From: Clostridia bacterium
GTDB lineage: Bacteria; Bacillota; Clostridia; UBA1381
DNA length: 64,000 nt
Direction of reading: 5' to 3'
NCBI GenBank assembly: GCA_045637525.1
Contig: JAZTZP010000150.1
Span: 64,151-128,150, forward strand
In this document: positions 3,408-8,228 of the stretch, piece after piece
Numbering within the stretch: the stretch's first letter is position 1
Layout: every line of letters begins with the position of its first letter
The notes under the pieces: generated by a model
Databases searched by the model: none
Told to the model about the DNA's origin: nothing
Seen by the model: the letters and a program-made list of their open reading frames with translations, nothing else
Program-made: the position numbers and the translations under genes

Positions 3408-3483
<76 letters not shown>

Positions 3484-3486
3484 AAA

Positions 3487-3525
3487 AAACGACAGATTTC
3501 GACAAGGAAATCTGTCGTTTTTTTT
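3487..3525 (+). terminator. rho-independent terminator of tRNA-Thr
   Basis: An 11-14 bp perfect stem (aaacgacagatttc / gaaatctgtcgttt) with a 6-nt loop, followed by a run of 8 T. Confidence 0.85.
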
Positions 3526-3608
3526 GCTAAATTCGCCTGACGGTGAGCTAAATGTGTTAACGTACGCTAAATTACTTCGTAGCTAAATTGACTTTCGGTC
3601 AGCTGATG
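3526..3608 (+). repeat. array of 4 copies of the word GCTAAAT, each separated by a small hairpin
   Basis: GCTAAAT at 3526, 3547, 3566 and 3582, plus a degenerate GCTGAT at 3602. The spacers fold as tcgcc-tgac-ggtga, gtgt-taac-gtac (two wobbles), tac-ttc-gta and tgac-tttcg-gtca. Confidence 0.5.
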
Positions 3609-3633
3609 GCAAATTTAATTTATGGTGATACAG

Positions 3634-6627: not shown

Positions 6628-7518
6628 ATGCGTCAGGTTATGGAATGTCGGGTAACGCCCGGAAAAACAATTAAACAGGTTTTGCACGGTGACTATCAGA
6701 TGTCCCGCGGGCTTGTATCTGCTTTAAAGAAAACTCCTGACGGAATATTAGTCAACGGTGAAAAGAAATATGTAAATTATGTGTTAAAGGAAGGTGACTG
6801 TTTGTGTGTTACCTTTGAGGAAACAGGCTCAATTAATATTGAGCCTGTTTGTATTCCGATTGATATTTTATATGAAGATGATTTTTTGCTTGCGGTAAAT
6901 AAACCGCCACATATGGCTGTTCATGTCTCGCATGGCAATGTATATGATACACTGTCAAACGCTGTGCTGTATTATCTTAATAAGAACGGAAGTGAGCATA
7001 CGTTTCACGTTGCCACAAGGCTTGATAAAAACACATCGGGGGTGGTGTTAATTGCAAAAAATTCTTATGCACATGATTTGCTTAGCAGACAGCTCAGAAA
7101 CAAAACTTTTTACAAGGAATATATTGCGGTTGTGTGTGGGAAAATGAACGGTTCGGGAACTATAAACCAACCGATAGCCCGTGAATGTGACAGTATAATT
7201 AAAAGATGCGTAAGACCGGATGGTGAGGAGGCAGTGACTGACTATGAGGTTATTGATACTGACAATAGCAATTCACTTGTGAGGATAGTTCCGAAAACAG
7301 GCAGAACGCACCAGATCCGGGTGCATATGTCGCATATAGGACATCCGATTGCGGGTGATGATATGTATGGTGCAGAAATAATTACAGCAGGCAGACATTT
7401 ACTGCATGCACACAAGATATCGTTTATTCATCCGTTTACAAAAGAAATATTGGAAATAATTGCCCCGTTATCGACAGATTTTTTTGAAAATTTTCAAAAA
7501 TTAGAAAATTACTATTGA
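6628..7518 (+). CDS. RluA-family pseudouridine synthase (RluD-like, with S4-like N-terminus)
   Basis: Catalytic motif ATRLDKNTSGVVLIAK. Other family strings are FLLAVNKPPHM and GRTHQIRVHMSHIGHPIAGDDMYG. Confidence 0.85.
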   Translation: MRQVMECRVTPGKTIKQVLHGDYQMSRGLVSALKKTPDGILVNGEKKYVNYVLKEGDCLCVTFEETGSINIEPVCIPIDILYEDDFLLAVNKPPHMAVHVSHGNVYDTLSNAVLYYLNKNGSEHTFHVATRLDKNTSGVVLIAKNSYAHDLLSRQLRNKTFYKEYIAVVCGKMNGSGTINQPIARECDSIIKRCVRPDGEEAVTDYEVIDTDNSNSLVRIVPKTGRTHQIRVHMSHIGHPIAGDDMYGAEIITAGRHLLHAHKISFIHPFTKEILEIIAPLSTDFFENFQKLENYY

Positions 7519-7543
7519 CAATTCTGATTTAATATGTTATAAT
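7515..7543 (+). promoter_or_regulatory. sigma-A promoter of tRNA-Ser (overlaps the stop codon of the upstream CDS)
   Basis: TTGACA 7515-7520, 17-nt spacer, TGtTATAAT with TATAAT at 7538-7543. Confidence 0.7.
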
Positions 7544-7557
7544 ATTTAAGTCAGTTT

Positions 7558-7645
7558 GGAGGGGTGGCCGAGAGGTTGAAGGCGCAGCATTGGAAATGCT
7601 GTGACGTGAAAGCGTTCGTGGGTTCGAATCCCATCCCTTCCTCCA
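7558..7645 (+). tRNA. tRNA-Ser (anticodon GGA), CCA encoded
   Basis: Acceptor GGAGGGG/CCCTTCC, anticodon stem CAGCA/TGCTG with loop TTGGAAA, long variable arm, T arm GTGGG-TTCGAAT-CCCAT, then T plus CCA. Confidence 0.9.
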
Positions 7646-7646
7646 G

Positions 7647-7677
7647 AAAAAAGCATCGACTTTGTCGGTGCTTTTTT
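7647..7677 (+). terminator. rho-independent terminator of tRNA-Ser
   Basis: 8-bp stem gcatcgac/gtcggtgc with loop ttt, followed by TTTTTT. Confidence 0.8.
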
Positions 7678-7680
7678 CAA

Positions 7681-7825
7681 CGAAATAAATCCTTTCAGGA
7701 TTTGTGAAATACCCTTCGGGCGTGAAATATTGCTTCGCAATGTGAAATACGCCTTTTGCGGCGTGTGGATTTATTTCATTTTACAGAAAGCGAAAGCTTT
7801 CTATTTCACAATTTCTGCAAGAAAT
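7681..7825. repeat. array of GTGAAATA words alternating with small variable hairpins, in direct and inverted orientation
   Basis: GTGAAATA at 7704, 7722 and 7742, with a variant CGAAATA at 7681. Its exact reverse complement TATTTCAC is at 7802. Hairpins are aatcc/ggatt, ccc-ttc-ggg, ttgc-ttc-gcaa, cgcc/ggcg, gaaagc-gaaa-gctttc and atttc-tgcaa-gaaat. Confidence 0.55.
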
Positions 7826-7856
7826 TATTTATTGAGTTATATCGTATCGAGTTTGT

Positions 7857-8228
7857 TTAAATATTATGATTTTGCAGGTATTCTTTAATTTTGTTGAAGC
7901 TTTGATTGCTTATATGATGTTCTATTTTACAGCTGTCTTCATATGCTGTTGTTTCATCTACGCCTATCAGTATTAAAGCACGGGCTATTATTTGATGACG
8001 CTCATACATCTTTTCGGCAATTTCTATGCCTTTCGGAGTAAGAGAAATTCCTCCGGCATCATCTACTGTTATATAGCCTTCTTCGCGAAATGATTTCATG
8101 GCTACGGATACACTCGGTTTGGTAAATGAAAGTTCATTTGCTATATCTATACTGCGGACGTTTCCGTTTTTCTTTTTTAATATATATATGGTTTCAAGAT
8201 AGTTTTCTGCCGATTCTTTTATCTTCAT
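7857..8228 (-). CDS. DtxR/MntR-family metal-dependent transcriptional repressor
   Basis: SAENYLETIYIL..., a winged HTH (IANELSFTKPSVSVAMKSFREEGYI) and metal-site residues in ERHQIIARAL...CKIEHHIS. At 123 aa it has no SH3-like domain. Confidence 0.85.
   Translation of the reverse strand: MKIKESAENYLETIYILKKKNGNVRSIDIANELSFTKPSVSVAMKSFREEGYITVDDAGGISLTPKGIEIAEKMYERHQIIARALILIGVDETTAYEDSCKIEHHISNQSFNKIKEYLQNHNI

Follow-up and report, generated by a model that had tools for sequence, protein, structure and literature searches.

The window analysed here is a stretch of 64,000 nucleotides from contig JAZTZP010000150.1 of a Clostridia bacterium. Directly behind a tRNA-Ser gene, it contains a cluster of short hairpins separated by copies of one word. 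The whole window was scanned against the Rfam covariance models, and three matches exceed the gathering score: two tRNAs and Gut-1 (RF01706; gathering score 50 bits). The Gut-1 match spans 7678-7753 on the + strand with 70.1 bits (E = 6e-12) and covers model positions 1-77 of 77. A second, weak match on the minus strand (7768-7835, 25.2 bits) falls below the gathering score. The feature belongs to the Gut-1 family and is a typical, slightly decayed copy. It shares with Gut-1 the full-length model match, three successive hairpins, GUGAAAU linkers, a leading CAAYGAAAU and an origin in gut bacteria. Its relatives come from human and ruminant gut Clostridia metagenome-assembled genomes (MAGs), and the closest matches of the window proteins lie in ENA and Logan gut assemblies.

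Weinberg et al. (2010, Genome Biol 11:R31; PMC2864571) described Gut-1 from 43 representatives, all in human-gut metagenomes and none from a sequenced organism. It was graded a probable non-coding RNA ('RNA: Y') from covariation; no function was proposed, and the description gave neither organism, genomic context nor mobility (PMC2864571). Literature searches on Gut-1, RF01706 and GTGAAAT found nothing later than the 2010 paper in the searchable library. The initial annotation of the window, made from the sequence alone, knew of no described function for the array. This holds in that none has been assigned, but the feature is a further member of a family already catalogued.

The window unit is larger than the 77-nt Rfam model, adding a leading hairpin (H0), a fourth hairpin, a long-range closure (S:S') and an inverted B arm, and unlike the element as described in 2010 it is placed directly behind a tRNA CCA. 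The anchor or target, tRNA-Ser(GGA), occupies 7558..7645 (+) and encodes its CCA at 7643-7645 (ARAGORN; Rfam tRNA, 56 bits). H0 (7647..7677, no strand assigned) starts 1 nt past this CCA and is the first module of the repeated unit. It is composed of an A-run, an 8-bp GC-rich stem (gcatcgac/gtcggtgc) with the loop ttt, and a T-run. H0 resembles a bidirectional intrinsic terminator and is paired in the folds of both strands.

The Gut-1 core (7678..7753, +) consists of CAA, word 1 (CGAAAT), hairpin 1, and three GTGAAAT words alternating with hairpins 2 and 3. Word 1 begins the variant CGAAATA at 7681, and the stem of hairpin 1 is aatcc/ggatt (7688-7692/7698-7702). The three exact GTGAAAT words (7704..7748, +) start at 7704, 7722 and 7742, as do the copies of the 8-mer GTGAAATA. 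Between them lie hairpin 2 (7711-7721, containing ccc-ttc-ggg at 7712-7720) and hairpin 3 (7729-7741, containing ttgc-ttc-gcaa at 7730-7740). Hairpin 4 (acgcc-ttttgc-ggcgt, 7749..7764, +), with cgcc/ggcg at 7750-7753/7760-7763, extends past the end of the Rfam model and is found in related elements by alignment. Segment S (gaaataaatcc, 7682..7692, +) could pair either with ggattt at 7698-7703, forming local hairpin 1, or with segment S' (ggatttatttc, 7767..7777, +), its exact reverse complement. The latter pairing, a perfect 11-nt inverted repeat, would close the A domain.

The B arm (7778..7835, -) is an inverted, partly decayed array that gives the weak Gut-1 match. It runs from a degenerate word, attttac (7778-7784), through the hairpin agaaagc-gaaa-gctttct (7785-7802; gaaagc-gaaa-gctttc at 7786-7801), an exact ATTTCAC (7803-7809) and the hairpin aatttc-tgcaa-gaaatt (7810-7826; atttc-tgcaa-gaaat at 7811-7825), to a second degenerate word, atttatt (7827-7833). 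The 8-mer at 7802-7809, TATTTCAC, is the reverse complement of GTGAAATA. A GC-rich stem-loop with a T-run, as in an intrinsic terminator, is present in H0 only; hairpin 4 is a weak terminator-like match in a consensus scan, and the word-hairpin units are without T-runs. All words, stems and hairpins listed in the initial annotation, as well as its inverted repeat, are present where it placed them.

The 8-mer GTGAAATA occurs 12 times in the window, with 4.3 occurrences expected, and this count was reached in 0 of 100 shuffles. Four of the 12 occurrences crowd into 106 nt. By a Poisson estimate of our own, P(>=4) is ~2e-10 per 130-nt span at a lambda of ~0.009. Elsewhere in the 64-kb window the 7-mer GTGAAAT is not enriched (20 vs 17 expected), so the signal is one of local clustering rather than of window-wide over-representation. 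On both strands the element region folds into structures much more stable than those of shuffled sequences (z = -6.6 and -6.3), and as DNA the window element folds to -41 kcal/mol (z = -7).

The second tRNA gene of the window, tRNA-Thr (3408-3483), is followed by a sibling trailer at 3484..3617 (+). In the sibling, an H0 hairpin with a T-run (3484-3525) precedes four copies of the word GCTAAAT, at 3526, 3547, 3566 and 3582, and a short hairpin comes after every copy. It has an S/S'-like closure (3528-3537/3608-3617), three G.T pairs on the + strand, and no inverted arm. The Rfam Gut-1 model misses it even at E <= 10, and a search of viral contigs for relatives of the GCTAAAT sibling returned only unrelated repeats. 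Trailers of this kind therefore follow both tRNA genes of the window; within one genome, the word varies from element to element and is uniform inside each element.

Outside the element, a promoter-like site of the tRNA-Ser gene (TTGACA-17-TATAAT, 12/12 consensus) lies at 7515..7543 (+); this promoter and the tRNA are also kept in the closest relatives (loci L333-L335). The downstream neighbour is a convergent DtxR/MntR-family repressor gene (7857-8228, minus strand), and S20, HPF and an RluA-type pseudouridine synthase mark a housekeeping region. Two mechanically called open reading frames (ORFs), 7546-7740 (-, 64 amino acids) and 7730-7888 (+, 52 amino acids), overlap the tRNA and the element and are repeat artefacts. 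The first is the one that the initial annotation suspected of being a mis-called small protein; it exists as a reading frame, lies antisense across the tRNA and is spurious.

Relatives and polar architecture

Relatives were found with a DNA probe that requires a CTTCG loop, which biases one hairpin per match towards TTC loops. The probe replaced a loose triple-word scan of viral contigs, which had returned mostly unrelated tandem repeats. It matched 21 loci in the viral collection and at least 113 loci in GTDB species genomes, giving about 130 related loci. With few exceptions, the carriers are MAGs from gut or rumen that bear the labels Clostridia, Oscillospiraceae, Acutalibacteraceae, Ruminococcaceae or Christensenellales. 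Matches on more than one contig occur in several MAGs, with 2-4 per MAG among the matches listed. The Gut-1 model recognises 14 of 14 tested relatives with 58-80 bits. The initial annotation had let its case depend on genome-wide over-representation of the unit; for this exact word none is seen within the 64-kb window, but in related genomes the element is multi-copy.

A word-array parser run on 135 sources delineated 186 arrays. Adjacent arrays, all intergenic, are arranged as + then - in 62 cases, as - then + in two and as - - in one, and 59 solo arrays have no partner arm. With 62 convergent and two divergent pairs, the flip of orientation noticed in the window is a constant design. The unit of ~215 nt comprises, in order, H0, CAA, the A domain and the inverted B arm. 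The A domain contains 3-4 word-hairpin units (in the window, CGAAAT followed by three GTGAAAT) with stems of 3-7 bp and the S:S' closure, and the B arm is built from inverted hairpin-ATTTCAC units. Word 1 and the 5' arm of hairpin 1 recur as their reverse complement in the 11 nt that lead up to the first ATTTCAC in 54 of the 62 composites. The S/S' closure lies on one side only in these 54 composites and on both sides in none, so the element is polar, with an A domain closed by S:S' and then a B arm. Composite lengths cluster at 170-178 nt.

Both arrangements of segment S leave a mark in 44 non-redundant A domains. Pairing reaches 98.8% in the long-range helix S:S', where both partners vary in 7 of 11 pairs (0 of 500 shuffles), and 97% in local hairpin 1, where both partners vary in 5 of 6 pairs (by score, 0 of 500 shuffles). 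The S helix covariation comes from only ~5-6 independent S types, and it is with this margin that the compensatory stem variation of RF01706 is found here. The predicted pairings of S with hairpin 1 (S:h1) and with S' are mutually exclusive, and both appear to be conserved. Stems have mean lengths of 4.6-6.1 bp and are ~98% Watson-Crick while their sequences differ, in line with the initial annotation, which had emphasised differing stems with maintained pairing.

The words behave in the opposite way to the stems. The AAAT and GAAAT columns are invariant across the 44 diverse A domains while the stems vary, so that both word and pairing, whose conservation in related genomes had been put forward as a check, are retained there. 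Some seed members of Weinberg et al. (BAAZ01025322, BAAZ01000095) lie behind a tRNA and terminator and have GUGAUAU as the word of the forward arm, matched by AUAUCAC in the inverted one; a change of the word is thus possible but involves both arms coordinately. The invariant columns, this coordinated change and the fourfold GCTAAAT of the sibling make the word a putative recognition site. Words are spaced 16-26 nt apart, and the helical phasing looked for as a sign of binding to duplex DNA is absent. Loops are strand-specific and read T-N-C or T-N-N-C in word orientation in both arms. The first B-arm hairpin is conserved as ATCGA-NC..loop..GN-GAGAT (L145, L150, L162, L175, L178, L184, L196, L232, L240, L246 and others).

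This recurrence bears on whether the array has any specific function. It could have clustered by chance or stem from a tandem duplication of the tRNA terminator that has diverged, as H0 and hairpin 4 are terminator-like and only a single copy with this word is present in 64 kb. However, the Rfam E-value is 6e-12, and the architecture recurs in more than 130 loci of many genomes with invariant words and covarying helices. The recurrence across genomes already refutes an array without specific function, an account we find scarcely credible.

Cassettes behind tRNA genes

The A arm always faces an H0 hairpin and then CAA. Among oriented elements, 32 of 54 lie behind a tRNA and 43 of 54 have an H0 with a T-run; no tRNA is seen on the B side. 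Each of the 26 tRNAs confirmed by ARAGORN has the orientation of the element and is located 33-50 nt upstream of it; together they cover 12 amino-acid specificities. L166 sits behind 23S-5S-tRNA-tRNA and L213 behind a five-tRNA cluster. The statement in the initial annotation that similar strings sit beside tRNA or rRNA genes in other Clostridia proves correct.

In gut and rumen Clostridia, the Gut-1 unit forms a discrete DNA element that duplicates and is present in multiple copies. L152, L162 and L240 contain tandem copies whose identity of 94-99% extends from the first H0 base to the last ATTTCAC; the flanks are unrelated. Two element subfamilies (>=85% identity) occur behind 6 and 5 different tRNA species, respectively, and the window copy is nearest to one behind tRNA-Tyr (86%) and is 84% identical to one behind tRNA-Arg. 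A block of ~1,020 bp, arranged as G-H0-composite-PF05635 gene-110-aa ORF-...tttcgCA, is 100% identical behind tRNA-Pro(CGG) and tRNA-Arg(ACG). At the Pro site the block is followed by an ordinary terminator hairpin without a composite, and at the Arg site by a second, different H0 and composite. In our reading, units insert exactly behind the tRNA CCA and displace older ones distally. Similar stacking is seen in L228, L196 and L133.

Other mobile elements border on the same junction. A large-serine-recombinase element (L345 1050-1275) ends at the junction (C)CAG/AAAAG-H0 that is otherwise found behind tRNA-Pro, and so does a phage-like PDDEXK_1/DUF2800 element (L357 1040-1375). In L345, the recombinase gene is followed by a stretch with four direct 'tgcaccccc' repeats. 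The second copies in L162, L138 and L232 are preceded by conserved cassette-end motifs, 'tatcaaaatta...gCCAG' and 'tacgcaccgtttg...C(C)AG'.

The left end of the element reads TTTTCAA-(C/G)GAAAT. On the right, TTGAAA follows directly after the last ATTTCAC in L138, L144, L174 and L210, where it is the -35 box of the downstream gene's promoter, which is consensus-like with a 17-18-nt spacer and TATAAT/TACAAT. The two ends are therefore inverted repeats. In cargo cassettes the cargo promoter begins at or after the last word.

The sole enriched neighbour among 142 flanking ORFs is a gene of the four-helix-bundle/23S-rRNA-intervening-sequence family, PF05635, with 10 occurrences (~115 amino acids each; L126, L133, L141, L155, L165, L203, L207, L210, L226 and L243). 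These neighbours form one subfamily with 66-94% identity, which has more than 7,900 90%-identity clusters in public assemblies. In the reverse direction, 20 places (L345-L364) were read for two exact subfamily proteins, and H0 and a composite lie directly upstream at all 20. When viral contigs were scanned for the four-helix-bundle gene, the only matches were two loci that were already known. Taken together, the layouts suggest that the unit is the tRNA-side end of small insertion cassettes located directly behind the CCA of various tRNA genes. Some cassettes are bare, such as the window copy, and others carry cargo, most often the PF05635 gene.

At the window's own locus, the evidence for mobility is only suggestive. 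It comes from L332, a 92%-identical relative on a 1.5-kb contig reached via S20, in which homology is lost at ~7827-7836, the outer edge of the B arm; the contig ends 47 nt later. The RluA-side contigs of L333, L334 and L335 stop inside tRNA-Ser, and the L332 contig stops just past the MntR-like gene, so that none of these assemblies includes the element region. Such breaks are consistent with repeat collapse in short-read assembly, though low coverage may also be the cause. In RluA relatives of 62-63% identity, the tRNA and the element are absent at that position. DtxR/MntR-like homologues (<=79% identity, from metagenomes) occur in other contexts without tRNA-Ser and are uninformative on the presence of the element. 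Exact-protein look-ups for the MntR-like, RluA-like and CorC-like proteins of the window found none on record.

Mobile DNA module or structured RNA

We favour, with a probability of about one half, the reading that Gut-1 is a mobile cassette-end module similar to repetitive extragenic palindromic (REP) sequences and bacterial interspersed mosaic elements (BIMEs), with words that are putative protein recognition sites. H0 would replace the displaced terminator of the tRNA and block transcription from either side. The invariant words would be the binding sites of one hypothetical sequence-specific protein, most plausibly a factor that mobilises or maintains the cassette. The hairpins, always paired and free in sequence, would hold the words apart and keep them accessible in single-stranded nucleic acid, either read-through RNA or transiently single-stranded DNA. 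The two arms would offer the same module on opposite strands, like both ends of a small mobile element. Sharp edges, the presence of the module on both strands, the absence of a consistent promoter and of G.U bias, and the terminator-to-promoter position speak for the DNA side.

Alternatively, the array could be a structured non-coding RNA, as which Rfam files Gut-1 (type Gene; sRNA). It would be made from the + strand, either when transcription passes a leaky terminator of the tRNA or rRNA operon or from a promoter that was not recognised. Stable hairpins would keep the GUGAAAU linkers between them single-stranded, and these linkers would titrate an RNA-binding protein or serve as its scaffold, much as in CsrB/RsmZ/CrcZ; the alternatives S:h1 and S:S' together with the AUUUCAC arm would form a built-in switch or competitor, and spread as DNA would be secondary. 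We regard such a small RNA (sRNA) as possible but doubtful. It would account for the covariation on which Weinberg et al. based their rating, for short, ~98% paired stems of varied sequence, and for two mutually exclusive helices that both covary. The strict co-orientation with highly transcribed tRNA genes, the three + strand G.T pairs of the GCTAAAT sibling, and a word spacing without the phasing expected of sites on one face of duplex DNA also fit an RNA. In addition, the loops of the + strand are typical of RNA, being of UUC(G) type in the A arm and GCAA/GUAA/GAAA (GNRA-like) in the B arm, and a conserved tandem G.A/A.G interrupts the stem of the first B-arm hairpin on this strand (U.C/C.U on the other).

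A class of arm-less variants points in the same direction. These have five hairpins and four GTGAAAT words (L139 5790-5960; L140 3500-3860, two copies; L143, L154, L170, L177, L183 and L147), and their tail contains a Shine-Dalgarno-like GUUGAGGAGG/GUGAAGGAAG, a local hairpin equivalent to S:S' and an AU-rich stretch. In L139, L140, L154 and L183, S:S' becomes a local 3' hairpin followed by a terminator, which in L140 is an intrinsic terminator of its own. The arm-less variants look like sRNA genes.

Several observations stand against the sRNA. The element starts 3 nt past the T-run of H0, a strong terminator, which leaves no room for a promoter, and a scan for promoters directed into the element found nothing consistent on either side (8/51 on + and 3/51 on -). 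G.T (G.U) pairs are not in excess over A.C in the stems of either strand, so the stems carry no RNA-strand signal. In the B arm the module recurs on the opposite strand, where it reaches the Gut-1 gathering score (L174, L210), so that no single RNA strand can have every word in sense. The sharp copy edges and mobile contexts likewise argue for DNA.

The mobile-module reading has its own difficulties. The RNA-like loops, the tandem G.A and the terminators of the arm-less variants all weigh against it, as do stems of 3-7 bp, which are short for DNA hairpins and suit RNA better. The binding partner of the words is entirely hypothetical. No target-site duplication is seen at the tandem copies in L152, L162 and L240. 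No transposase or recombinase is constant next to the element: Phage_integrase accounts for 2 of the 142 flanking ORFs, and neither a Y1 nor a DDE transposase is among their top Pfam families. Copies at different sites of one genome are 75-93% identical, so the family is old and not in a recent burst. The evidence for mobility comes from only a few locus families, and for the window locus no pair of an empty and a filled site was obtained.

Comparison with known systems

The likeness to REP/BIME elements that the initial annotation had proposed stands as a functional analogy and fails as family membership. Like the REP, BIME and REPIN (REP doublet) elements of Proteobacteria, Gut-1 is made up of small extragenic units, each a palindrome with a conserved word on the 5' side of the hairpin; the units occur in both orientations and in multiple dispersed, sharp-edged copies without target duplication. 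Both are often found 3' of genes and at terminators and form inverted doublets. In REP units, a GTAG (GT[AG]G) word lies on the 5' side of an imperfect palindrome, ~20-40 nt long and conserved among the copies of one genome, and REP/REPIN elements reach tens to hundreds of copies per genome. The Gut-1 word is GTGAAAT, and GTAG is absent. The Gut-1 stems are much shorter (3-7 bp rather than 10-15 bp) and variable within a genome, and the window holds one GTGAAAT element and one word-variant in 64 kb. The units do not alternate but form a block of 3-4 direct units followed by one of 3-4 inverted units, with a polarity set by H0 and a link to tRNA 3' ends. The genes of REP-associated tyrosine transposases (RAYTs) are usually single-copy and located elsewhere in the genome than the REP units; no RAYT partner was found for Gut-1 in the 142 flanking ORFs, where PF01797 is not among the top families. 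REP/RAYT systems are not known to be established in Clostridia. A true member of this family, mobilised by a RAYT (Y1 HUH) transposase, is very improbable.

Folding of the two arms upon each other raises a comparison with recombination sites. When 54 whole composites are folded to minimum free energy, inverted words are the pairing partners of 114 of the 151 forward words, with a gain of ~16.5 kcal/mol. By analogy with integron attC or CTX-phage attP(+), the element could be a folded single-strand DNA recombination site at which a recombinase acting in trans inserts cassettes near tRNAs; the pairing of GTGAAAT with ATTTCAC would then form a ladder of 7-bp boxes with protruding hairpins. The stable DNA fold of the window element (z = -7), a structure kept while sequence is free except in short boxes, and the coordinated word change of the GUGAUAU/AUAUCAC subfamily are compatible with such a site. 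So are element-small accessory gene-element layouts in L162, L152 and L352, and newer cassettes that lie tRNA-proximal to older ones in L228 and L352. On the other hand, junctions lie at the left edge of H0 and not within the composite, and the arrays are short, with at most two composites per 8 kb, in 7 of 135 loci. Neither an integron-type integrase nor a constant recombinase is found among the flanking ORFs, the S:S' covariation is topologically incompatible with a full ladder, and many elements (the 59 solo arrays and the tRNA-Thr sibling) have no B arm. We consider this site improbable.

The wider likeness to integrons, including the Vibrio cholerae repeat (VCR), lies in a conserved fold with short boxes and free sequence, in small promoter-adjacent accessory genes, and in newer units that lie closer to the anchor. 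An attC site carries boxes ordered R''-L''...L'-R' (RYYYAAC...GTTRRRY) and recombines inside R'; the Gut-1 words match these boxes at 6 of 7 positions, in reversed order. Gut-1 differs in having no IntI, attI or Pc, arrays of 1-2 units, junctions outside the composite, and the tRNA CCA as its anchor. As an analogy, Gut-1 composites might be the recognition or recombination modules of a cassette-capture system in gut Clostridia that works as a functional integron analogue, although we think this unlikely. Cassettes with accessory genes, above all the Avd-like PF05635 gene, would stack right behind the tRNA CCA, and the folded single-stranded array would be read by a dedicated protein, perhaps the multimeric four-helix-bundle protein itself or a serine recombinase in trans.

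Other short repeats share some of these properties. Among the modular, MITE-like repeats of Firmicutes and Neisseria, pneumococcal BOX A-Bn-C, the repeat unit of pneumococcus (RUP) and Correia elements are likewise short, non-autonomous, modular, intergenic and highly structured, with inverted ends, and can supply their neighbours with promoter or terminator signals, as Gut-1 does in several loci with its TTGAAA -35 box. Gut-1 differs in having no TA or other target duplication, in its specificity for the post-CCA site, and in an invariant 7-nt word between hairpins. CsrB/RsmZ, with GGA motifs, and CrcZ, with A-rich motifs, are also hairpin scaffolds displaying many copies of a single-stranded motif. 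These RNAs, however, are products of promoter-driven, regulated genes with a known partner and have motifs mostly in loops, whereas Gut-1 has linker motifs and an antisense arm and is without promoter or partner. Phages, integrative and conjugative elements and islands that insert at tRNA 3' ends resemble Gut-1 in their target, and the elements in L345 and L357 share the same junction. Gut-1 cassettes differ in their size of 0.2-1 kb, the lack of an integrase, a core of only ~CA/G, and their own terminator hairpin and word array.

Several other identities were rejected. CRISPR (clustered regularly interspaced short palindromic repeat) arrays have identical repeats of 23-50 nt and unique non-palindromic spacers, whereas the repeat here is 7 nt and the spacers are 9-19-nt palindromes; the match to CRISPR-DR63 reaches 16.8 bits (E = 9). 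Type III toxin-antitoxin RNAs of the ToxI kind consist of near-identical tandem repeats of ~36 nt followed by a terminator and the toxin gene; here the units differ and the downstream gene is the convergent DtxR/MntR-family repressor. A parS/Noc half-site, suggested by the likeness to GTGAAAC/GGGAAAT, was discarded, as the words are never adjacent palindromes and are unphased. A group IIC intron shares the position after a terminator, but neither intron RNA nor reverse transcriptase is present. T-box or tRNA mimicry was considered and dropped.

The orphan motif of 2010 is now placed in named lineages of gut and rumen Clostridia, and what Rfam models proves to be a single arm of a larger, polar element that is tied to the 3' ends of tRNA genes and appears to move as, or together with, small insertion cassettes. 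This enlarged architecture and the evidence for mobility make Gut-1 experimentally tractable. If the mobile reading is true, Gut-1 should be annotated as a repeat or mobile-element boundary rather than as an sRNA gene or small ORFs, and tRNA-adjacent cargo such as the abundant PF05635 proteins would gain a context. If the RNA reading is true, Gut-1 would be a candidate multivalent protein-binding RNA at the ends of stable-RNA operons. If the cassette-capture reading is true, it would represent an integron analogue in a phylum thought to be without integrons.

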